Source: a virus (taxonomy: Duplodnaviria; Heunggongvirae; Uroviricota; Caudoviricetes). Taken from it: a stretch of 37,378 nucleotides of DNA. The notes beneath the pieces were generated by a model. That model was not told the DNA's origin and did not search any database. It saw only the letters and a list, made by a program, of their open reading frames with translations. A program made the translations under genes and the position numbers. The stretch lies in IMG/VR virus record IMGVR_UViG_2667527994_000015. One strand, written 5' to 3'. The number at the start of each line of letters is the position of its first letter. The first letter of the stretch is position 1. Shown here in pieces: positions 4,266 to 35,930 of the stretch.

Positions 4266-4747
4266 GACAGCAGCTCTCCCACCGTTTTACTGATATCGCT
4301 TAAGGCAGACGTTGCCGTATCCTGCAAATTATTCAGCTGCGCACTGAGATCACCGAACATATCGGACAGGGATTCATCCACCCGTTTGAGCGACAGGGTG
4401 AACTCAATCCGGCGCGGCATACCATCGCGGAAAAACTCCGTTTTAGTCTGATTCAGTCCCTCAATCACATACATGCCGTAAATCGTGCCGCTGCCTTCAA
4501 TCAGGGGCCATGCTTTTCCCTGTTCTGCCATCTGCTCCAGAGCCAGCAACGACAGCCTGCCGCCCGTTATCTCTGGCATAAGAACACCAGAAAGCGTCAG
4601 CATGTCGTTGTCCGGTCCCAGAAACTGCGTGGACGGACGTCGGTTGACCCGGCTGTTTGCCGCATGTCGCCAGCTGCGTTGATACTGCAGTTCCTGATAC
4701 GGCACAGTGCGCAGCATAAACACGTACAATCCCAGCACCATCATCAT
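4262..4747 (-). CDS. U: Tail protein gpU
   Basis: 161-aa ORF between T and D with overlapping stop/start codons; P2 gpU-like position and size. Confidence 0.85.
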   Translation of the reverse strand: MMMVLGLYVFMLRTVPYQELQYQRSWRHAANSRVNRRPSTQFLGPDNDMLTLSGVLMPEITGGRLSLLALEQMAEQGKAWPLIEGSGTIYGMYVIEGLNQTKTEFFRDGMPRRIEFTLSLKRVDESLSDMFGDLSAQLNNLQDTATSALSDISKTVGELLS

Positions 4748-7700
4748 GCGTCGTATCCCCCCTGATCGCTGTAGTTACTCCTGGCTTTTGCCTTCAGCCT
4801 GCGCTCACGTTCATCAAGCTGACGTGCCACCTCCCGCGCAATATCCTGCGCACTTTGTCCTGGCTGCGTCTGAATGATGATCTGCGTCGGTGCCTCAATC
4901 CGCTGAACGGGCGGCACAGTGGCTGCACGACTCGCCATCGCTTCGCCGCCTTTCGCGGGAAGTGCCAAAGGGTGCAACGGTGGAAGCTCTGCTGGCGCGG
5001 CAGCAACGCCCATCATTCCGGCAACAACGGCAGCCAGTGCAGCTGTATTTCTCCGGCTGGTCACATTTGCCGGGCCGTTAACAATTTCCGGCCCGTTTTC
5101 ACCGACGATGCCAAACTGCCCGCGCGGGATATACCCGCCGCTGTCATACATCCCCGCAAAGCCATATCCCCATGACGGAAAACCACCCGATGGCATCATC
5201 ACTTTACCGTCTGCATTCACCGTCGCAGGTTGCTGACGCGTCACGCTTTCCGGCAGTTTCGCCTTTGCAGCTTCTTTACTGACAATGCCGAGTTTATCCA
5301 GCAACCAGGAAACACCGGATTTCAGGGAGTCCAGCGGATGCATGACCATATTCAGCCCTTCCGCCAGTGCCTCCCCGAATCGTCGCCCCATTGCCGCTGC
5401 GCTCTGCAGCTCGGCAGAGGTCGACTTAACAGGCGTCAGCAGATTAGTAAACCAGCCCCACAGCGCCTGTACTTTGTCGCCAATCCACTGAAACACAGGC
5501 TTAAGTGGTTCGAATGCAGCACTGATGGGACCTGCCGCCGCTTTGAATCCTTCCACCACGCCACCGAGAAATGCGGTGATGGGTTGCCAGTATTTCCAGA
5601 TAACCAGCGCCACGCCTGCCAGTGCAGTAACCACAAGACCTATTGGACTGAGCAGAGCACCTAACAGACCAGATATGGCATACAGGGCAACGCGCAGCAT
5701 CGCCAGCGGACCGGATGCCAGCACACGAAGCACCGCGCCTGCGGCAGCCAGTCCACCGCGCAGTACCACCAGAGGATTCATAAACATCACAGCAACAGCA
5801 CGTAAACCGGATAATCCAGACCGCAATAGTGCAACCGGCGCACCTGCTACAGTTTTCAGGACATTCCCCGTCAGTGATGCCGTGCGACGCAAAGACGACA
5901 ACGGCGCAGTAAGTAAACCCGCTGCGTTGCCCGATGAAGCAAGCCCGCGTCGCAGCAGTGCCAGTGGTGCGCCAGCCAGCCAGGACAACGCGCTGCTGGT
6001 TCGGGTTACTGCTGCCGTAACGGAAGGTAACGTTTTGATACCCAACACAGAGAATCCCAGACGGATGACTGCCAGCGGCCCCAGCACTGCAGCCAGCGCC
6101 ACCGCTAAGGTGCCGAGGCCTACGGTAACCGCAGCCACAATAGCCGCTACTTTCATCAGTGTGCCTGTCAGTTCCGGGTTAGCTTCCACCCAGCGGCGCA
6201 ACGCCCCCGTAATGCTTTTCACCGTGTACAGAATATCCATCAGCGGTTGGCGCAGCGTTTCGCCCAGGCTGCTGAAGGTGTTCTGCGCTCCGGTTTTGAC
6301 CAGCAACCACTGAGCAGAAAGTGAGTCTTTGTTGATGTCGGATTCTTTCTGCATGGAACCGAGCGCATCATTGCCCGCTGTCAGTTTTAGCTGGCGCTGT
6401 AGTTCCGGCAGGTTGTTTGCCAGTTTCGCTGCGTCATCGCCAAACTCTTTACCAAACAACATGGTCATGGCAGACAGGCGCTTATCCTGCGGCAGTGCGT
6501 TCACCTTCTCCAGCACACGCTGGATAGTTCCCATCGCATCCTTCGTCATCTGCTTTTCAATCACTTCAGGATTGAGTTTCAGCAGATTCATCCCTTCAAA
6601 GAAACTCTTGCTTTGCATGGTGGCAATGGACAATTCACGCACCATCGCGTTTGCTGCACTGGCTGCAACCTCCGGCGCAGCGCCCAGTGTCAGGAAGGTG
6701 GAACCCAGCGCCGCCGCTTTACGATAATCCAGACGATCAGCCACACCGCCCAGGCGTTGCATGACATCGATGATGTCTGCCCCTTTCGACATGGCGTTAT
6801 CATCCAGATAGTTCAGCGCATCACCGAGCTGTTCAATATTGCGTGTAGGGATTTTGTAGAGCTGGGCGATTTTCCCCAGACTTTCTGACAGTTCATCCGC
6901 TGGCAGCTCAAAAGCTGTTGCCGCCTTTGCTGCCGTACTGGCAAAGGCCAAAAGGTCACGTTTCTGGTCTTCCCAGCTGTCGTCAGGGTTTGCGACGTTC
7001 ATGCGCGCACCACCTTCAACCAGTGCGGCGAAGTCCACAGCACCATTTTCCATCGGTAACTGTTCGCTGGCAGCCTTGATGGCATCCTGCATTTCATAAA
7101 AACGTGCAGTACGGTTTCCATTATCATCACGCAGACCATTGACCTGCTTTGCCACACCTTTCATGGCATCTTCCATGCTGGTATAGCTTTTTACTGCCGC
7201 CATCACTGGTGCGCCCATTGCCAGCCCTGCAGCCGTGGTGGTGGCTCCGGCACCTGCAATACGATCACGCACCTCCAGTGAACGGGCATAACTGGCACGC
7301 GCCGCATTCATCCTGCGCTGAGCTTCCCCCAGTCGCTTCAGCCGCGCCTCCTGTTTCGACAATTCCTGGTTATAACGTGATGTTTCACGGGCTAAACGGG
7401 CAGTTGCTCCCGCATCATCTTTCGCAGAAATTCCCGCCCGGTACAGTTCTGCACGCACAAGCGCCGTTTGCTTCTGCAAATATTTTTGTTGTTCTTCCAG
7501 GCGTTGGACTGCCAGCCTTTGCCGACCTAAAGCCACAAGGTGCCGTTGTGATGGTTGTTCCATCGACTCCAGCTCACAGCTAAGCAAATTAGCCTTCTGT
7601 CTGGCATAGTTCAGCCTGTCGCCTAACTTCTTGTTATCGGCCTGCAGCTTGCGAAATTTTTCCAGGCTGTTACCCGCCTGATTGAGTTGCTTTAATGCGT

Positions 7701-8304: not shown

Positions 8305-8820
8305 TCAGAGGCCGAGGGCGTTGCGGTGCGCTTCCATCAGGTCCACACCGTCCACAATTTCCACCATGTTGATAAGGTCCACTTCATAGAGCACCTCACC
8401 ATTGATGGTCAGCTTCGCGTAGCTGTTGGTACTGGTCACTTTGGTGGTGTTGCTTTCGCCCGTCTTCCACTCACCGGAATCCACTTCTTTGTGACGTCCA
8501 CGTACCACAAGCTCCACGGGCTGCACTTCCCCGGTATCGTCACGCTGGATAGAGCCGGTAAAGCGCAGCTGGATGCCATCCACCGTGGCTTTGCCCATCT
8601 GCTTAAACAGCAGCAGTTCAGTACCACCAATGGAAAATTCTGTATCCAGTGCACTGTCATCCAGTCCCAGATCCACATCCACCGCCCCCGGCATACCGCC
8701 GCCGCGATACTTCTCATATTTGCGGGTGAATTTCGGCAGCGTCAGCGACTCAACGATTCCCTGCCAGTTGTTCCCGTCGTTAAACAGGTTCAGATGTTTT
8801 AATTTGCGTGGTAAAGCCAT
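8305..8820 (-). CDS. FII: Major tail tube protein FII
   Basis: 171-aa ORF directly downstream of the sheath gene; P2 FII-like size and position. Confidence 0.9.
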   Translation of the reverse strand: MALPRKLKHLNLFNDGNNWQGIVESLTLPKFTRKYEKYRGGGMPGAVDVDLGLDDSALDTEFSIGGTELLLFKQMGKATVDGIQLRFTGSIQRDDTGEVQPVELVVRGRHKEVDSGEWKTGESNTTKVTSTNSYAKLTINGEVLYEVDLINMVEIVDGVDLMEAHRNALGL

Positions 8821-26292: not shown

Positions 26293-27327
26293 CTATACCA
26301 AAGTTTTTTTAATCGCTCTCAATGTTGTCATTAAATTTTCGCCATACGGTGTTAAAGTCCAATAAGTACCTTTATCTTTAACACTTCTACTCTTTTCACT
26401 TTTAATAATTAACCCAAGCGCCCTAAACTGCACTTTTATTGTTTGGAAATCAGAATTAGATACTTTTAAAGATAATAAATTCATATCTTTAAAATCCTCA
26501 TAGATGATATCTTGAACTGCATTTCGCACACAGTTATTTAAAGCACTATATAGCTTATCATCCACTATCTCATCTATCATCAAAGGCGAAACATATGAAA
26601 AAATATCGTTCCAGCTTAATTTGACCTTATCGGTATATTCTTCACCATTATGTCTCCATTCTGTAGGCGACACACAGAATTCATAATCCAATTCAAAAAG
26701 CTCATCTCCTTGAGATAGTTTTTCTGCACCTGCAGGCGCTTCAGTCATACTTGATACAAGTTGACTTTCAAGCTCCTCAATTCGCCTTTTTAATTTCAAT
26801 ATTTCCTTTGCATCACCATCATTAGTTACTAAATTTCCTTTAACCCACCCAATTGCAGGACATTCTTTAATTAGTCTAATCAAACTTCTGCTAACCTGGC
26901 TACCTAACTCTGCAGGAGACTCCCAAAAACGACATAATTTTGTTTTAACTAGCTCTTCGAAAGCCTTTAGTTTTTCTACGCCTTCAGGGTTTGACTCACA
27001 ACGTTTTGCGGGGAGGTTACTTTTATCTTTATGAATAAAACCTATAACTGGCTTACCAGTTTCCAAAGCATAACGATACTCCATTTCTGTATAGCTTATT
27101 CCATCAGGACCAATTGAACCATAACGCCCTGCCAAGATAACAATATAATAATCACTATCGTCAATTATTTTTTTTATTAAACTCCACTGATCACTATTTG
27201 TTGCTGGAAATAATTCCATTCCTGCTGGCATACAATCAAGCTCCAGCAGTGCTTGCATTACTTCCTGTCTTTCTTCTTCAAGATCAGCAAAAGTTGAACT
27301 AACAAAAACCTGATATCTTTTATCCAT
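26293..27327 (-). CDS. Hypothetical protein with DUF4062-like N-terminal domain (accessory gene between portal and cos)
   Basis: 344-aa ORF; N-terminus VFVSSTFADLEEERQ and YYIVILAGRYG fit my recollection of the DUF4062 consensus; central coiled-coil; AT-rich. Confidence 0.7.
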   Translation of the reverse strand: MDKRYQVFVSSTFADLEEERQEVMQALLELDCMPAGMELFPATNSDQWSLIKKIIDDSDYYIVILAGRYGSIGPDGISYTEMEYRYALETGKPVIGFIHKDKSNLPAKRCESNPEGVEKLKAFEELVKTKLCRFWESPAELGSQVSRSLIRLIKECPAIGWVKGNLVTNDGDAKEILKLKRRIEELESQLVSSMTEAPAGAEKLSQGDELFELDYEFCVSPTEWRHNGEEYTDKVKLSWNDIFSYVSPLMIDEIVDDKLYSALNNCVRNAVQDIIYEDFKDMNLLSLKVSNSDFQTIKVQFRALGLIIKSEKSRSVKDKGTYWTLTPYGENLMTTLRAIKKTLV

Positions 27328-27636: not shown

Positions 27637-28173
27637 TTATTCATCATAGTGTTCTAATTTCGCTTTTGCTAAACGTCCATGTAAGTGATTAACAAAATGT
27701 AAATTATTCAAAATCAGGCTCATAACGCATTTTAATTGCATCCAGCTAATAAAGTAAATGAAGAAAATACCAATGTATTTAAACAAGTCTTTATTAGCTT
27801 GATAAACAGGTAATGCATAAAACACTGCCTTAACCAAAAAGAAAATTAGAATCCCAGCCATAACACAAGCAGATGTGATTATTGTATAAACTAATTTCTC
27901 TATTCTTGGTGAGTCATGCTCATTTTTTATATAACTTACATCATCCTTAACAATACTATTCATTGCATTCGGATATAAAAAACCGACCCATAAACCGACA
28001 ATAGTGAATATAGATGCTGAAATATTTATAAGCGCACCTAAAATATCTTTTGCATCATTATAGGAAAAACTTTTGAACGAAAAATAGCTTATAACGCAGC
28101 ACAAAACAACAGCAACAAAATTAATCGCCTGCTGTTTTGCAACTGTTATTATCAAACCTTCCGTTTCTGTCAT
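27637..28173 (-). CDS. Small integral membrane protein with four predicted TM helices (accessory operon gene 2)
   Basis: 178-aa ORF with four hydrophobic stretches; GGAAGG SD; its ATG lies 1 nt after the upstream gene's TGA (TGAtATG). Confidence 0.7.
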   Translation of the reverse strand: MTETEGLIITVAKQQAINFVAVVLCCVISYFSFKSFSYNDAKDILGALINISASIFTIVGLWVGFLYPNAMNSIVKDDVSYIKNEHDSPRIEKLVYTIITSACVMAGILIFFLVKAVFYALPVYQANKDLFKYIGIFFIYFISWMQLKCVMSLILNNLHFVNHLHGRLAKAKLEHYDE

Positions 28174-28174
28174 A

Positions 28175-29374
28175 TCAACCTTCCGCTATCTTTTTTGTGG
28201 ATGCAGCTTCAGATTCTTTAATGGATGCTTCCTCAGCATATTTTACTTCACTAATCAAATCATCACGAATTTTGTTTATTTCATCCAGTAAAAAACGCGC
28301 TGAATAATGCTCAAACCCATCCGAATCTTGAAGAGGAAGTTTAGTCCTGGCTACATAGCTACTGAGCCAAACCGGATTAGCACGATCAGCCAGTAAAAAA
28401 CCCACATCCCATTCAGACTCTTCACCTCTCATTGAGAAGAGATTTCGAAGCTCATCCGATGATGGTGCACCGTCAATTTTAACTTCAATTTTACGAGGCT
28501 GCTCCAAAACAGGAGGTGCCCCAATAAGCTTATTACGCTTTTCTTCACCCACCAGAGATGCTAAAGCTACACTTGTTAGCTTCAACAATGGTTGCCTTGT
28601 GTCATTTTGGTTTATTACCGTTGTATCCTTTATCAATGTGTGTGTAATTTTATGCCTTAACCTTTCAAAGTTTTCCTCAGCGGCTTTAAGTTTTGTTTCT
28701 TCCAATACAAACTTGAAGATACAGTTTATCTCATTTTTGCCATCTTTATATTGAAACTTAGTATTGTAGACATCCACACAACGACCAGGGGTCTTAGCTG
28801 ATTCAAATGTACGCTTAGATTTCGTTCTTTTACCTAACTTACTATTATTATTTACATGCTGAATGAAGTATTGTGCGAAGAGATAAGTATCAGCGAAAGA
28901 ATGGGGGAATCTGATTGATGCTATTTTATTCAACTCAGGAATAATCCAGTAATAGCAGGGTTCACCCCAAATTATTTTATCCTCACCATGTTCTCTTCCC
29001 GCCCTAATGGTTCCTTTACTATCACCACTTACTTTAGAACCGACCTTAATACCATGTATTCCGTTACCGTTCCCCACTTCACGGTATAAAACAATTACTG
29101 CATCTTTAGTCTGGCTGTCCCTCACAAGGCCTCGACTGTAAACTCGTGTTCGCAGAGGTTGTTCTTCTTTATTCCATGGGAGAGTCTGCTCAAAATTTTT
29201 ATCCTTGAGCCACCCTTCTAAATCGTCCAAAACCCCCATAAGATCGCCGAATTTATAATCAAGCTCTTCGGGTTTATTCTTTAACCGATAAAACCCACAA
29301 GCAGTAATATCAAAGAAGGTGATTGAGCCGTTGTCCACTAAAACTCCTTTTTGCCAAAGCAACACACGATACAT
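28175..29374 (-). CDS. Hypothetical 399-aa protein (accessory operon gene 1)
   Basis: ATG-initiated ORF with no motif I can recognise; AT-rich; translationally coupled to the 4-TM gene; no clear SD. Confidence 0.65.
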   Translation of the reverse strand: MYRVLLWQKGVLVDNGSITFFDITACGFYRLKNKPEELDYKFGDLMGVLDDLEGWLKDKNFEQTLPWNKEEQPLRTRVYSRGLVRDSQTKDAVIVLYREVGNGNGIHGIKVGSKVSGDSKGTIRAGREHGEDKIIWGEPCYYWIIPELNKIASIRFPHSFADTYLFAQYFIQHVNNNSKLGKRTKSKRTFESAKTPGRCVDVYNTKFQYKDGKNEINCIFKFVLEETKLKAAEENFERLRHKITHTLIKDTTVINQNDTRQPLLKLTSVALASLVGEEKRNKLIGAPPVLEQPRKIEVKIDGAPSSDELRNLFSMRGEESEWDVGFLLADRANPVWLSSYVARTKLPLQDSDGFEHYSARFLLDEINKIRDDLISEVKYAEEASIKESEAASTKKIAEG

Positions 29375-29538
29375 TTTTCACGTATACCATCAGAATCGTC
29401 CCTGAACTTCAAGTTACTTATGATAATCAAGAAAGCTGTCGAATGTTGTTGCATAGGCCAAAGTTTCAGGGGAACAAGGCATTCTTAAATCACTTTTCAC
29501 TACCCGTTTCTAACGCCTCACGCGGCTCGTTGTTCAAC

Positions 29539-29573
29539 CTTGCGGACGATAAAAACCAGTTTTATCGTCCGCA
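29539..29573. other. Perfect 15-bp inverted repeat hairpin
   Basis: ttgcggacgataaaa-ccag-ttttatcgtccgcaa, between the dinI-like gene and the accessory operon start; no flanking T-tract, so function unclear. Confidence 0.35.
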
Positions 29574-29580
29574 ACGTTCG

Positions 29581-29814
29581 CTAGTGTAACCAGCTGTCGT
29601 CCTCCCAGACCTTCTGCATAATTTTCATCACTTGTTTTCTTTCTTCGTCCAGTTGCAGTCCGGTCAGTTCCACACCGTTAGAGCTACCTTTGCGGATACG
29701 AATTACCGTTTTGGGATACAGGGGGCGCAGATTGCGGTAAAGCTCGGACTCAAGGGCGTCCAGTGTAGACTGGCTAAACTTCTGCTCTTTATCGATCATT
29801 ATTTCAATGCGCAT
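29581..29814 (-). CDS. dinI: DinI-like protein
   Basis: 77-aa product from the internal ATG (MRIEIMIDKEQ...) with GAGGTG SD; resembles E. coli DinI; downstream of a LexA box. Confidence 0.7.
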   Translation of the reverse strand: MRIEIMIDKEQKFSQSTLDALESELYRNLRPLYPKTVIRIRKGSSNGVELTGLQLDEERKQVMKIMQKVWEDDSWLH

Positions 29815-29824
29815 AAAAGTCACC

Positions 29825-30013
29825 TCAGCTGATGACATCCATTGAGCGGTTGTATTCATGGGTTCTGATTTTTGCCATGAGTTCATCTGTCAGTTCAGAA
29901 ACCCACTGCAGGGCCAGCCCCTTCTCTTCATCACTACACTCACTAGCCGCTACAAGCTTAAGAAAAAAATCAATGCGCTGGAGCTTCAAAGACTCCAAAA
30001 AATAGTCCTGCAT
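29825..30013 (-). CDS. Small SOS-controlled protein, possible Tum-like antirepressor
   Basis: 62-aa ORF with GGAGG SD 4 nt before the ATG and a perfect LexA box about 45 nt upstream; position equals the 186 tum locus; the homology itself is not established. Confidence 0.45.
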   Translation of the reverse strand: MQDYFLESLKLQRIDFFLKLVAASECSDEEKGLALQWVSELTDELMAKIRTHEYNRSMDVIS

Positions 30014-30055
30014 CTTTCCTCCTATGACACCAAAGCAATACTGTATACATAACCA

Positions 30056-30071
30056 CTGTTTATATTTACAG
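30056..30071. promoter_or_regulatory. LexA operator (SOS box)
   Basis: ctgtttatatttacag is a perfect CTGT-N8-ACAG palindrome with AT-rich spacer, overlapping a TATA-rich putative -10 on the minus strand. Confidence 0.6.
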
Positions 30072-30165
30072 TATATAATAATCTTACTGATGTAAAACGT
30101 TTTTTTACGTTCATCAGCCTGATATGCCTGGTATTATTAAGAGCACGAATTGTTAACCCGCGTAA

Positions 30166-32580
30166 TTAATACAGATCCCGCCACTTATCATCTTCCTGCA
30201 AACGCTGGTTCCGATAGAAGATACGCAGGCCTGCTCCTGACGGAATACTGCCACCGCGAAGGAGTAAATCGACCTCTTTCTCGCTGCCATCAAATCCTCT
30301 GGACTTCAGTTCATAGACGAGCTGCTGTCGCTGATGATCTGTAATTCGCTGTTTGTAGTCTCTACGCCGTTTCGGTTTCACCAGGCGTAACCTTGCAGCC
30401 AGTTCCCGGCGCTCTTTTTTGTTCATACTGTGCAGGTAATCGTGCAATTCCTTGTCATCCATGCGGGTGATATCCGTTCTGGTATCCCCATCAGCTGATT
30501 TGTCTTTCCCTTGTTGGTACAAATTTTCAGCAAGGGGACAGTTATTGCCACGAGTCCAAGGGGCGCAAGCGCCCTGGTCGGCTGCCGCCTCCTGAACGTC
30601 AACGGCTTTACGAACCATTTTCCACTTCACTGCATGAGTGCAGATCTTGCCCTCTGCAATGGGTGACCAGATGCCATAAATACGAATGCCGTGATCGCCA
30701 TAGGCGGTCGGCTCTTCGTTGATTTCATAAGCGGTTCTGATGAGGTGATATTTACGGGGAACCAGTACGCCGCCCTGCTTCATGATGTAGGTGGCAAAAC
30801 AACCAGCATCAGCAGCAGCCAGAATGGCATCAAGACGCGGGTTATCCAGTACCGGCGCACCTGCTTTTTTGTCACCCTGTTGCCTTGCCGCCTGACCAGC
30901 CAGCAAGCGAAGTTCACGGTAAGCCTGACGCCCCGGAATACCAAAGAAGCGGAATTGCTGAACACGATGCAGAGACGCCCAGGCATTCACGTATTCAGCG
31001 TTATCACGCAGAGATTTACCCGTTTCCTTGCTGATCTCGCCAGCCAGACCACGACCGTCAATGTTCTTACTGATATATTTCGCGATGTAGCTTGTCGGCG
31101 TTCCTTTGCGCGGGTTAATCAACTCAGACTTAAAGCGCGGCCCAGTGTTATTGCCCAGCTCCTCGCGGTCTTCACGGATGGCAAACTTACGCAGTAATGC
31201 AGTGATGGCACGGCGGTCTTTTTTGCGCATGAAACACAACAGGTGCCAGTGAACTGTGCCATCATGATGCGGCTCAGCCACCCGCACGCCATACCAGCGC
31301 AACCCGGCTTTGTGCATCGCCTTACGAAATGCAGCAAACATGCCGACCAGATAATCGCTGCTTTGTCTTACCGTCGCGTTTGTCCAGGTCGGGTTTGGTC
31401 TGCCGTTATTTAGCGTGGAATGGAAACGCGACGGACAGGTGATAGTGTAGAAAACGGCGCAGTCACCGCGCATTTCCGCGATAAGCTCCAGACCTTTAAC
31501 ACAGGCCATCATCTCATTGCGGCGATGCGCAGGGTTGCTGCTGCTGGCGTTTACCACATCCTCCATGTCCAGCGTGTCGCCGTCTTCGTTCACCAGTTCA
31601 TGAGAACGGAAAAACTCCAGCGACTTACGGCGCTGCTCACGTTTATGCATCACGGCTTCATAGCTGACATAAGGAGATGCTTTTTTGCTGACCAGGCAAA
31701 CAGCGCGCAACTGCTCTTCCCGCCATTCGCAACGCATCTTCCATAATTTCCGATACCACCAGTCGGCGCACAACATACGCGCCAGCGAACCCGGAATGAG
31801 TTCATAGGGCACGGGTTTACGGCGGTTTCTTTTCCGACGGAGTTGCTCAAACGCAGGTGGGATGACATCCAGACGCAGGGTTTCCGCTGCCACCTTTTCC
31901 CATGTCTTGCGGATTTCTTCTGGCTTAACGTCATCGGTGGCATACAAATCACCACAAGCGGCATCAAGGCACATACTCATATGCGCAGCTACCAGGGTGG
32001 ACAGGCGTTTCACCTGATCCTGACTCATTTCAGGCAGGATCAGCAGGCCGTCCAGCCCTTCATGGCTTGCCATAAAGCGAAAAGATGCAGATAGCTGACT
32101 GTCGCGTACATGCTCCAGTCGTTCCAGACATGGCTTAATCGTCTCACGTAAATAGCGGGAATAAGCCTTTGGCCTGCCCAGGCTGCTGAAGTATTCAATA
32201 CGTTGCATCAGCGGCTTGCTGATATGGGAAGGCTGGGCGTTGACGTCCGCCAGAATGACCATGTCTGAATTAAAACGCTGCTGCTCATGCGCCAGCTTTG
32301 CCCGGCTAATGAGCTTATCCTGCTCCATTTCGCGCTGGACAGGATCACGTGATTCATTAAAGAAATAACGCTCCCAGACCTGATCACTCAGTGCCTCGCG
32401 GCGCAACTGTTCCTGCTCGTTATCGGCAGCGTACAGAGTGATCAGGTTTGAAAGCGTAGAAACCGGCGCAACTTCCGCCGGGTCCAGATAAGGGTTAATG
32501 GCCTTTTTCGGGCTGTTCCATGAGAATGCTGCGGCAGCCTCGTTAAAGCCGCAGCAGTTGTTCATATCGGCATGACTCAT
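30166..32580 (-). CDS. A: Replication initiation protein gpA (HUH rolling-circle endonuclease)
   Basis: 804-aa ORF; HUH motif in TVHWHLLCF and tyrosine motif YIAKYISK; overlaps the dam gene upstream. Confidence 0.9.
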
Positions 32581-35235: not shown

Positions 35236-35360
35236 GATGCAACATTCCTCGTTTAATGATGATTAATCAGGACGAATACGGATCGTTTGTATTTTGTGAA
35301 CACCATAAACATACGATCGCACAGTGAAATCGTCAAGATAAAAGTTCACTTGGAGTGACC
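35236..35360. promoter_or_regulatory. Lysis/lysogeny switch region between apl and cI
   Basis: Intergenic region with inverted repeat gtgaac (35296..35301) / gttcac (35344..35349); exact promoters and operators not resolved. Confidence 0.4.
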
Positions 35361-35930
35361 ATGAATTTGGAGAAAGGCGGACGAGGCGCCATAGAGCGCA
35401 TGGTAGAAGCTTATGGATTCAAGACTCGACAGGCGTTGTGCGATCATTTAGGAATCTCTAAAAGTACACTCGCCACACGCTACATGCGTGACTCATTCCC
35501 AGCAGAATGGGTAATCCAGTGCGCCCTTGAAACAGGCACCTCGCTTAATTGGCTCACAACCGGGCATGGTTCAAAGCAAACTTCAGGTAATACAAATACT
35601 ATGGAAGTTGCTAAATATGTATTATCTGATGGGGCCTTGTGTGAAGACGGCTTTTATATTTTCGATAGAGAATTTCTACCGTCGGCATTCAAGAATCTTT
35701 TTGTAATCACAGATAATAATTCTGAATTTATTTGTGATAAGGAATTTGATGATATACGTGATGGTAAATGGGTAATAAGTATTGATGGCGAAATAACGAT
35801 CCGTGACATTACTCGTTTACCCGGTGGAAGAATCTTCGTCGAGGGTGGAAACAGAGCCTTCGAATGTAAGATAGAAGACATTGAAATAATTGGTAAAATT
35901 ATAAGTTTAACAGTCAAGTATGTTAAATAG
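35361..35930 (+). CDS. cI: Immunity repressor CI (phage 186 type)
   Basis: ATG 35361 with GGAG SD; N-terminal HTH (MVEAYGF...LCDHLGISKSTLATRY); similar to 186 CI from memory. Confidence 0.8.
   Translation: MNLEKGGRGAIERMVEAYGFKTRQALCDHLGISKSTLATRYMRDSFPAEWVIQCALETGTSLNWLTTGHGSKQTSGNTNTMEVAKYVLSDGALCEDGFYIFDREFLPSAFKNLFVITDNNSEFICDKEFDDIRDGKWVISIDGEITIRDITRLPGGRIFVEGGNRAFECKIEDIEIIGKIISLTVKYVK

Follow-up and report, generated by a model that had tools for sequence, protein, structure and literature searches.

Organisation of the module

The window (the whole stretch of viral DNA analysed here, 37,378 nucleotides in length) is a Fels-2-like (Felsduovirus) prophage of the P2/186 family. On its minus strand, just downstream of a P2-type replicase gene A, lies a small module which reads, in the order of that strand, as a LexA box, a 62-aa ORF preceded by GGAGG, a DinI-family gene and a perfect 15-bp hairpin. 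These parts had been pointed out in an earlier note on this DNA, and all of them are present. We refer to the two genes as tumA and tumB. The order running from gene A through the LexA box to tum is common to 186, PSP3, Fels-2 and related loci. The module and its upstream landmark comprise the following features:

30166..32580, minus strand: replication protein A, P2/186-type (Pfam Phage_GPA, E 1.4e-127), immediately upstream of the module and a landmark of synteny
30056..30071: LexA box 1, CTGTAAATATAAACAG as read on the minus strand, a perfect CTGT-N8-ACAG with an all-A/T spacer
30041..30056: LexA box 2, GTGGTTATGTATACAG, overlapping box 1 by one base
29825..30013, minus strand: tumA, 62 aa, presumed antirepressor half of a split Tum, with a Shine-Dalgarno sequence GGAGG at 30018..30022, 4 nt before the ATG
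29581..29814, minus strand: tumB, encoding a 77-aa DinI-family protein, with a Shine-Dalgarno sequence GAGGTG at 29821..29826 that overlaps the tumA stop codon
29504..29586, minus strand: conserved element of ~83 nt at the end of the tum genes, a 15-bp hairpin followed by the tail AAGGTTGAACAACGAG-N6-GAGGCGTTAG
29540..29574, minus strand: the hairpin itself, a perfect 15-bp stem with a 5-nt loop

LexA operator and putative promoter

The pattern CTGT-N8-ACAG occurs once in the whole window, as CTGTTTATATTTACAG at 30056..30071, leaving 42 nt between the box and the ATG of the 62-aa ORF. A loose match of this kind is not significant alone, as 0.47 occurrences are expected and 37 of 100 shuffled sequences contained at least one. 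Stricter patterns, requiring either an all-A/T spacer or the 20-mer consensus with at most 3 mismatches, were matched in none of 100 shuffles, and a scan with these patterns found no second LexA site elsewhere in the window. The box lies 95 nt past the gene A stop codon, where it overlaps the putative -10, and a LexA site is conserved in this position in 186, PSP3, Fels-2 and the majority of the 33 species-level genome loci.

A second, overlapping box at 30041..30056 was overlooked in the earlier note. Read in succession, CTGTAAATATAAACAG and GTGGTTATGTATACAG share the G at 30056, and the left half of box 2 is degenerate. Judged by their sequence, the two form a double SOS operator of the colicin type. 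The 39 nt from 30037 to 30075 equal the cloacin operator at 35 of 39 positions (a manual count on the alignment), and the same alignment takes in the colicin N and pesticin operators with near base-for-base agreement. The likeness extends to the one-base overlap of the boxes and to the non-consensus GTGG left half of box 2. The colicin-type operators differ in that their -35 and spacing are not homologous to those of the window, in that the window -10 overlaps box 1 rather than preceding it, and in the genes regulated, which are unrelated. The double box occurs in 21 of 32 related species loci; more distant relatives of the module in Pantoea, Erwinia and Tatumella have one LexA box only. At colicin genes, two overlapping boxes bind two LexA dimers (PMC2994835), and by analogy tight repression by two dimers is expected at the window operator.

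The putative promoter comprises the following elements:

30091..30096, minus strand: putative -35 hexamer TTTACA of a p95-like SOS promoter, read from the sequence
30068..30075, minus strand: putative -10 region, overlapping LexA box 1
30068..30073, minus strand: first option for the -10, TACTGT, with a 17-nt spacer and the geometry annotated for 186 p95
30070..30075, minus strand: second option for the -10, TATACT, with a 15-nt spacer

Because a sigma-70 consensus scan of 29200..30400 called no promoter, the hexamers being weak, this putative assignment has its basis in conservation and in the likeness to 186 p95. In the 186 record, the LexA site opens with the 6 nt of the p95 -10, TACTGT, and the spacer is 18 nt long; the window is arranged likewise. 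Across the 33 related genome loci, TTTACA (or TTTCAA/TTTCAC) is kept at the same distance from the first LexA box, and CTATACTGT of the -10 region is also kept in relatives. By promoter geometry, box 1 is the counterpart of the 186 box, despite a MAFFT alignment which paired the single boxes of 186 and PSP3 with box 2 of the window; we make no claim as to which box is ancestral.

Two sets of reading frames that run across the operator were rejected as start-codon miscalls. The first is a 30-aa ORF (30022..30114), and the second consists of the 'long' TumA versions of 84-109 aa found in databases. In both, the N-terminal extension translates the operator and is not conserved, unlike the 62-aa core.

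tumA and its relation to 186 Tum

The 62-aa ORF carries a clear coding signature across 30 orthologues. Differences fall at third codon positions in 66% of cases, synonymous and non-synonymous codon differences number 7613:4330 in frame, the two alternative frames giving 1344:10786 and 932:10980, and none of the 30 orthologues contains an internal stop. tumA is thus a real gene under purifying selection.

Neither Pfam nor PADLOC has a family matching the 62-aa ORF. Against PHROG profiles, its product matches phrog_698 (E 3.6e-38), phrog_8554 (E 2.4e-08) and phrog_1993 (E 0.0022). Residues 1-70 of 186 Tum match the same three profiles (phrog_1993, 1.5e-23; phrog_8554, 3.4e-12; phrog_698, 5.9e-06, this last match being colinear), and phrog_1993 is the family of PSP3 TumA itself (E 2.7e-32). 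The earlier note had proposed an alignment with 186 Tum as a check. At the level of families this bore fruit: hhalign places TumA colinearly on the Tum N-terminal half over residues 3-43 (E 0.0015, at a probability of only 16.7%), and a gap-free alignment of the two families extends over residues 1-48. At the level of single sequences it did not, as pairwise BLASTP found no similarity of the 62-aa ORF to 186 Tum or PSP3 TumA, nor any between PSP3 TumA and 186 Tum. Given the negative BLASTP and the low hhalign probability, the homology between TumA and Tum rests on family profiles together with synteny, and it is at this profile level that TumA may be called a homologue of the N-terminal, non-DinI half of 186 Tum. 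The suggestion in the earlier note that the ORF may be a divergent or minimal antirepressor gains support from this link to one half of the 146-aa 186 protein.

An AlphaFold2 model of TumA predicts a two-helix hairpin (pLDDT 85). A Foldseek search of the PDB with this model returned only generic helical hairpins, all with E > 1.

tumB, a DinI-family gene

TumB scores 81 bits (E 6.7e-23) with the Pfam DinI family (PF06183), for which the cut-off is 24. It also matches the structure of E. coli DinI (1GHH) over its full length, with C-terminal WEDDSW facing WESADDW, and its sequence places it in the DinI family, acidic C-terminal helix motif included. TumB is 40% identical to residues 71-145 of 186 Tum. 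A longer ORF of 101 aa (29581..29886) was rejected as the true DinI-like product: the 77-aa start has a ribosome site, and the 77-aa protein matches DinI and Tum from its first residue.

Terminal element and downstream cargo

The hairpin belongs to a structured and conserved element. For the 81 nt in which it is embedded the folding energy is -32.6 kcal/mol (z = -4.3), and within the ~83-nt element compensatory changes were found in 10 of 18 pairs, with 92.8% of cells paired as against 34-48% in slid controls. A covariance model recovered the full-length element once in each related locus, on the tum strand; in 186 the copy follows orf97, and PSP3 has two copies. Rfam has no family for the element. 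The hairpin is followed by AGGUUGAACAACG with no U run, and a scan did not call it as a terminator; since it lacks a U-tract, its role as a terminator is uncertain.

Beyond the element lies variable cargo on the same strand:

27637..29374, minus strand: the cargo as a whole, PDC-M18A and PDC-M18B, occupying the position of 186 orf97
28175..29374, minus strand: PDC-M18A, 399 aa (PADLOC E 5.9e-31)
27637..28173, minus strand: PDC-M18B, 178 aa (PADLOC E 2.7e-18)

This cargo is present in only 8 of the 1125 E. coli genomes that have the tum module. PDC-M18A and PDC-M18B may be read through from the SOS promoter and so be co-transcribed with tumA and tumB.

The immunity repressor

The presumed target of TumA lies further along the window:

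35355..35930, plus strand: 186-type CI immunity repressor with two 186-CI Pfam domains

The protein matches Phage_CI_repr (E 2.8e-33), Phage_CI_C (E 2.7e-27) and the 186 CI structure 2FJR in the PDB (E 2.6e-31). Peptidase_S24 stayed below threshold (16.3 bits against 23.3), with a match that covers only the C-terminal part of the profile. By sequence, the window CI is therefore of the 186 type, with no detectable S24 self-cleavage domain. Of 33 loci, 27 proved to have a 186-type CI in the flank, and the others are short or rearranged.

Across loci, TumA identity bears no relation to CI identity (r = 0.02), and where the TumA proteins of two loci are at least 85% identical, the median identity of their CIs is 41%. 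A protein that binds its partner specifically would not be expected to show such a lack of covariation, unless TumA touches CI on a surface that is conserved; the finding neither proves nor excludes antirepressor activity.

Relation to known systems

The pair tumA/tumB is the 'split tum' already described for Fels-2 and PSP3, and the arrangement is not new. Lemire et al. (2011, PMC3121763) describe tum as split in two in both phages; that paper credits the observation for Fels-2 to Bunny, Liu & Roth (2002) and cites a personal communication for antirepressor activity of the upstream gene in PSP3. The same paper refers to Shearwin (1998) for 186 Tum as an experimentally established CI antirepressor. 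In Salmonella arrays, the Fels-2 genes STM2726-STM2727-STM2728 rose 2.6- to 14.8-fold under the mutagen MX (p 2.8e-05 to 0.01), an induction comparable with that of umuDC (PMC2225428).

Fels-2 of Salmonella LT2 holds essentially the same element, at ~97% DNA identity over the module. TumA is 98% identical to STM2728 and TumB 98% identical to STM2726.1, and the two modules also agree in lying after gene A, in having a double LexA operator and in the +1 offset between the reading frames of the genes. Homology ends at the tumB stop codon, however: Fels-2 is without the conserved hairpin element, and its downstream gene is STM2726 (phrog_1353), whereas the window has the hairpin element and the PDC-M18 cargo.

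The phage 186 operon runs p95 - tum - t95a - orf97 - t95b. It resembles that of the window in its position after gene A, in a -10 TACTGT inside the LexA site, in its 186-type CI and in the ~83-nt element. At profile level the N-terminal half of Tum is a remote homologue of TumA, too diverged for BLASTP, and the C-terminal half corresponds to TumB. The earlier note had credited the 186 operon with separate genes for Tum and a DinI homologue, which is incorrect, as the DinI-like domain is part of Tum and orf97 bears no relation to DinI. Unlike the window, 186 has Tum as a single 146-aa fusion with several in-frame starts and with residues 71-145 DinI-like, a single LexA box, a canonical terminator (t95a) with a T run after tum, and the conserved element after orf97.

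PSP3 has a small upstream gene, annotated in its record for 'UV induction of prophage', and a downstream gene described as 'similar to dinI and 3' end of 186 tum', with TumB 76% identical and the conserved hairpin element after tumB. Its TumA falls in phrog_1993, whereas that of the window falls in phrog_698, and the two are 22% identical in alignment; the PSP3 genes, moreover, share one frame, parted by a stop codon, and are preceded by a single LexA box.

A parallel in logic is offered by Gifsy-1/-2 and Fels-1, with the antirepressors GfoA, GftA and FsoA, and by AntC of N15: a non-cleavable repressor is likewise inactivated by a small antirepressor under LexA repression, which has a DinI homologue as its partner. 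These are lambdoid phages, in which dinI comes first and the antirepressor and repressor families are unrelated to those discussed here (PMC3121763).

Proposed prophage induction and its alternatives

We consider it highly probable that the module serves the SOS induction of a Fels-2-like prophage, as an operon of the 'split tum' form comprising a LexA-repressed promoter, tumA and tumB. The central proposal of the earlier note, that prophage induction proceeds by antirepression, with a LexA-controlled, tum-like module acting against a 186-type CI that is not cleaved, is borne out to this extent by homology, synteny and the literature.

The mechanism we envisage is as follows. In an undamaged lysogen, LexA on the double operator would cover the -10 and the transcription start of the p95-like promoter, so that the operon would be silent. 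Upon DNA damage, activated RecA would bring about self-cleavage of LexA, and the promoter would fire to yield a message for TumA and TumB. TumA would bind the 186-type CI, which would lose its hold on its operators, and the lytic promoter would thereby be released and the prophage excise and grow. The most likely role of TumB is to bind RecA filaments and modulate the SOS signal, and it would be dispensable for induction. The conserved hairpin element would end or stabilise the tumAB message, and probably lets some transcription run on into the downstream cargo. For the window, we infer LexA binding, the contact between TumA and CI, and the role of TumB; damage induction is taken by analogy from the published orthologue in Fels-2, and antirepressor activity from 186 Tum and PSP3 TumA.

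In 13 of 33 species loci, tumA occurs without tumB and is then followed directly by the conserved terminal element, which is consistent with TumA being the essential part. Stand-alone versions (63-73 aa) of the N-terminal half of 186-type Tum are also common. Both observations weigh against the idea that both halves are needed, with TumA and TumB as a two-chain equivalent of 186 Tum whose DinI-like half helps to inactivate CI; in its extreme form, TumB would be the true inducer and TumA a mere adaptor. The two parts are, to be sure, one polypeptide in 186, both genes are kept in 20 of 33 loci, and the 10-nt gap between them, with the tumB ribosome site lying over the tumA stop, would suit equimolar synthesis. 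Yet the 186 record labels C-terminal-only products as modulators of SOS induction rather than inducers, and the activity in PSP3 is assigned to the upstream gene, in the personal communication cited in PMC3121763. We regard a requirement for both halves as unlikely.

The absence of covariation between TumA and the immunity repressor could be read in another way: the module would be an accessory ('moron') operon under SOS regulation, serving to modulate the SOS response of the host or to control the downstream cargo, with a target of TumA other than CI and induction achieved otherwise. DinI homologues act on RecA and not on repressors, the cargo that comes next on the tum strand is of the defence type, and 186 orf97, in the same position, blocks 186 infection according to a note in its record. 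Against this stand the homology of TumA to the non-DinI part of 186 Tum, an established CI antirepressor, the 186-type CI within the flank in 27 of 33 loci, and the fact that no other SOS input to the switch is visible, there being no second LexA site and no S24 domain. An accessory role in place of induction is, on this evidence, very unlikely. It is extremely improbable that TumA and TumB are joined into one Tum-like protein by programmed frameshifting or stop-codon read-through: 62 and 77 residues plus a linker would give a protein of nearly the length of 186 Tum (146 aa), the DinI frame is open upstream to 29886 (the 101-aa ORF) and the PSP3 genes share a frame with a stop between them, but relatives do not agree in the frame of one gene with respect to the other (the window has tumB at +1 from tumA, and all three relative frames occur at gaps of 9-12 nt), so that no single recoding mechanism is conserved, and tumB has its own good ribosome site with no slippery sequence evident.

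Returning to induction by antirepression, TumA is 70-100% identical across the Enterobacterales, while the co-resident 186-type CIs diverge to ~40% identity. A tentative extension, which we would not put forward as the probable one, is that TumA is an antirepressor of broad specificity and that the same SOS promoter, made tighter by its colicin-type double operator, also drives exchangeable defence cargo (here PDC-M18) past the hairpin. On such a reading TumA may recognise a conserved patch of the CI N-terminal domain, S.ST.A.R..R..FP..W...C..TG.S..WL..G.G. If true, TumA could induce heteroimmune Fels-2- or 186-like prophages in trans, a P2-family counterpart of the Gifsy cross-talk, and cargo driven via the conserved, non-terminating hairpin element would amount to a DNA-damage-inducible defence.

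Significance

Phage 186 provides the textbook case of this mechanism, which is on record for Fels-2 and PSP3 as well, and the window copy brings no new principle. The details added here are the double overlapping SOS box, the covarying ~83-nt element, the frequent occurrence of tumA without tumB and the lack of covariation between TumA and CI; of these, the double operator, the terminal RNA/DNA element and the lack of co-evolution between antirepressor and repressor are refinements only. The minimal 186-type antirepressor would appear to be a helical hairpin of ~60 aa, working, or at least persisting, without the DinI-like half. The sequence of the tum-module region is matched in 1125 of 5426 complete E. 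coli genomes, and the module would set the time at which prophages of a very common class leave the chromosome. Antibiotics that set off the SOS response would accordingly fire it.

The split tum module

As judged from its sequence, the module listed below is a near-identical copy of the split tum operon of Salmonella phage Fels-2, and is already known as such. The region is ~97% identical to Fels-2 and 90-97% identical to many P2-family phages of Klebsiella, Escherichia and Salmonella. The SOS box, the 62-aa open reading frame (ORF) with its GGAGG, the DinI-like gene and the 15-bp hairpin described in an earlier note were all found on the minus strand; the feature is real, and its reading as tum/dinI-like was right in outline.

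Features of the tum module and the switch genes
30166..32580, minus: gene A replicase (Pfam Phage_GPA, E 1.4e-127)
30056..30071, minus: CTGT-N8-ACAG site, box 1 (pattern scan)
29825..30013, minus: 62-aa ORF, tumA, with GGAGG ahead of its start
29581..29814, minus: 77-aa DinI-family ORF, tumB (Pfam DinI, E 6.7e-23)
29540..29574, minus: perfect 15-bp hairpin (81 nt around it fold at -32.6 kcal/mol, z = -4.3)
35355..35930, plus: 186-type CI (Phage_CI_repr and Phage_CI_C domains; PDB 2FJR match, E 2.6e-31)
elsewhere in the window: CII homologue
elsewhere in the window: integrase
elsewhere in the window: ORF at the slot annotated Cox/Apl in close relatives, placed by position (Pfam search of this ORF, no match)

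In the phage 186 record, tum codes for a protein of 146 aa, is driven by p95, a promoter repressed by LexA, and precedes orf97. The earlier note's statement that 186 encodes Tum and a separate DinI homologue was inaccurate, because the DinI-like part lies within Tum and orf97 is unrelated. The window DinI-like ORF is 40% identical to residues 71-145 of 186 Tum, 76% to PSP3 TumB and 98% to Fels-2 STM2726.1. The proposed alignment of the 62-aa ORF with 186 Tum returned nothing by BLASTP, as did that with PSP3 TumA, but family profiles link the ORF to both. The ORF matches phrog_698 (E 3.6e-38), phrog_8554 (2.4e-08) and phrog_1993 (0.0022), and residues 1-70 of 186 Tum match phrog_1993 (1.5e-23), phrog_8554 (3.4e-12) and phrog_698 (5.9e-06), the last colinearly (positions 6-44 on 6-44); PSP3 TumA is itself a phrog_1993 member by profile search. 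Profile-profile comparison of the window TumA family with the 186-type family is also colinear (3-43 on 3-43, E 0.0015), with a low probability because both alignments are shallow. Residues 1-48 of both families align without gaps and have E7, R13, L20, C26, A34, E40 and K48 in common. The PSP3 record describes tumA as "similar to 5' end 186 tum; UV induction of prophage" and tumB as "similar to dinI and 3' end of 186 tum". Lemire et al. 2011 (PMC3121763) report that tum is split in two in Fels-2 and PSP3, with the PSP3 antirepressor activity in the upstream gene, so that the window pair is, by homology, this already known split tum.

Codon-level conservation indicates that the 62-aa ORF is a real gene. 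Third codon positions account for 66% of the nucleotide differences among 30 orthologues, none of which has an internal stop, and synonymous to non-synonymous codon differences stand at 7613:4330 in the tumA frame, against 1344:10786 and 932:10980 in the other frames. Its 482 database relatives are spread over the Enterobacterales. Gene callers often lengthen TumA upstream, translating the LexA operator and ribosome site; we rejected the 84-109-aa database versions (relatives P0005-P0117; window 30022..30114, minus strand) as annotation artefacts with unconserved extensions. In the AlphaFold2 model (mean pLDDT 85), two predicted helices, residues 2-23 and 28-61, form a hairpin, for which comparison with the PDB gave no informative neighbour.

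Comparative anatomy

Taking one genome per species, we compared 33 loci from Escherichia to Pantoea, Erwinia and Tatumella. tumA lies 3' of gene A in every locus with intact context, and a 186-type CI is present in 27 of the 33. Only 20 carry tumB; where it is missing, the conserved terminal element directly follows tumA, an arrangement consistent with TumA as the indispensable part. The 186-type N-half is also common as a stand-alone protein of 63-73 aa, which some source records call "Tum protein". The window tumB is read in the +1 frame relative to tumA. A recoded tumA-tumB fusion was rejected, given that the relative frame varies among loci: the gap measures 9-12 nt among relatives with all three frames represented, and the two are thus separate cistrons.

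In one related locus, L008 (Escherichia sp. MOD1-EC7003, NZ_PTRE01000033.1), TumA is 100% and gene A and TumB are 98% identical to those of the window, whereas CI is only 86% identical and the PDC-M18 cargo is missing. At the sequence level, this shows immunity and cargo regions exchanged as a mosaic around a conserved replication-tum block.

Operator and induction

A loose CTGT-N8-ACAG site is expected 0.47 times per window and is therefore not significant alone. The form with an all-A/T spacer, or the 20-mer consensus with at most 3 mismatches, has a single match in the window and none in any of 100 shuffles. The single SOS box previously claimed, at 30056..30071, was found, but a second, overlapping box at 30056..30041 had been overlooked; box 1 is CTGTAAATATAAACAG (30071..30056) and box 2 is GTGGTTATGTATACAG (30056..30041), with one base common to both. 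A search across the window for a second LexA site beyond the tum operator found none.

A 56-nt operator query matched 219 plasmid records, most predicted to be mobilizable, and the three inspected have, immediately after the matched stretch, genes for colicin N, pesticin and cloacin. The tum operator (30037..30075, minus strand) equals the cloacin operator at 35 of 39 positions (hand count on the alignment), and the colicin N and pesticin operators align with it. By this resemblance it is a colicin-type double overlapping SOS box, a putative LexA operator; at colicin genes, overlapping double boxes bind two LexA dimers (PMC2994835). The double box occurs in 21 of 32 related loci, and a single box in the more distant Pantoea, Erwinia and Tatumella relatives. 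As a consensus promoter scan called nothing, we infer the promoter layout (TTTACA, a 17-nt spacer and TACTGT, with the putative -10 within box 1), which agrees with that annotated for 186 p95.

In Salmonella TA100, which carries Fels-2, treated with the mutagen MX, the STM2726-STM2727-STM2728 operon was induced, all three genes rising 2.6- to 14.8-fold (p 2.8e-05 to 0.01), comparably with umuDC; the gene downstream of tumB was co-induced (PMC2225428).

Terminal element and downstream cargo

We rejected a canonical terminator as the identity of the hairpin: sequence reading found no U-tract after it, and a terminator scan did not call it. The hairpin belongs to a conserved ~83-nt element (29504..29586, minus strand) formed by the stem and a tail, AAGGTTGAACAACGAG-N6-GAGGCGTTAG. 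Compensatory changes affect 10 of 18 stem pairs, stem cells are paired in 92.8% of cases versus 34-48% with a slid partner, and 0 of 500 shuffles reached the observed covariation score. Searches with a covariance model recover a single full-length copy in each related locus, in every case on the tum strand. In related locus L001 it lies at 4338-4419, and in L003 at 5549-5630 and 5953-6035. In most relatives the element stands where the tum genes end; in 186 it lies between orf97 and t95b, PSP3 has two copies, one each side of gp37, and Fels-2 is without it by the same model. An Rfam search found no family like it. We tentatively interpret the element as bounding the tum message at its 3' end, where it may stabilise the message or partly stop transcription, and as the left border of a cargo hotspot; a cassette boundary or a single-strand DNA hairpin are other possible roles.

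Related loci L014, L015, L018 and L025 (about 8507-8515) have, just after the element, a small conserved ORF missing from the window; it begins MG(K/S)KD..YQ(I/V)VYRG...W VFFQRPKEC.GG and has a well-placed ribosome site within the GAGGCGTTAG motif.

The orf97/tin-old position is occupied in the window (27637..29374, minus strand) by two cargo genes that match PDC-M18A (399 aa, E 5.9e-31) and PDC-M18B (178 aa, E 2.7e-18), a PADLOC candidate defence pair; of the 1125 E. coli genomes that have the tum module, only 8 carry this cargo. The pair may be SOS-inducible, because it lies on the same strand as tum, after a hairpin which is not a canonical terminator. Between it and the portal gene is a 344-aa ORF (26293..27327, minus strand) with no PADLOC match; the equivalent slot in E. 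coli UMNK88 holds a GmrSD-domain restriction gene.

Possible antirepression across immunity types

The peptidase S24 domain, required for RecA-stimulated self-cleavage, scored 16.3 bits in the window CI, below the threshold of 23.3. We compared TumA with CI, its presumed target, in the window and 24 related loci (300 pairs). Mean identity is 82% for TumA versus 45% for the co-resident CI, without covariation (r = 0.02), and where two loci have TumA at least 85% identical, the median identity of their CIs is 41%; this does not sit easily with TumA as a CI antirepressor. Conserved CI residues cluster in the helix-turn-helix domain (N-terminal, about residues 35-71) and in a few C-terminal motifs (G.W..ID, R.P and FEC); should TumA bind CI, these are the residues it must touch. 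The non-covariation allows a reading in which TumA is active across immunity types, like the Gifsy antirepressors (Lemire et al. 2011, PMC3121763). In some E. coli genomes the module is present in as many as three copies.

Taken as a whole, SOS induction through antirepression is probably the mechanism of the split tum module. Roughly one complete E. coli genome in five has sequence matching the tum-module region, and the colicin-type double operator, the terminal element and a presumed antirepressor that does not covary with CI refine a known system modestly.
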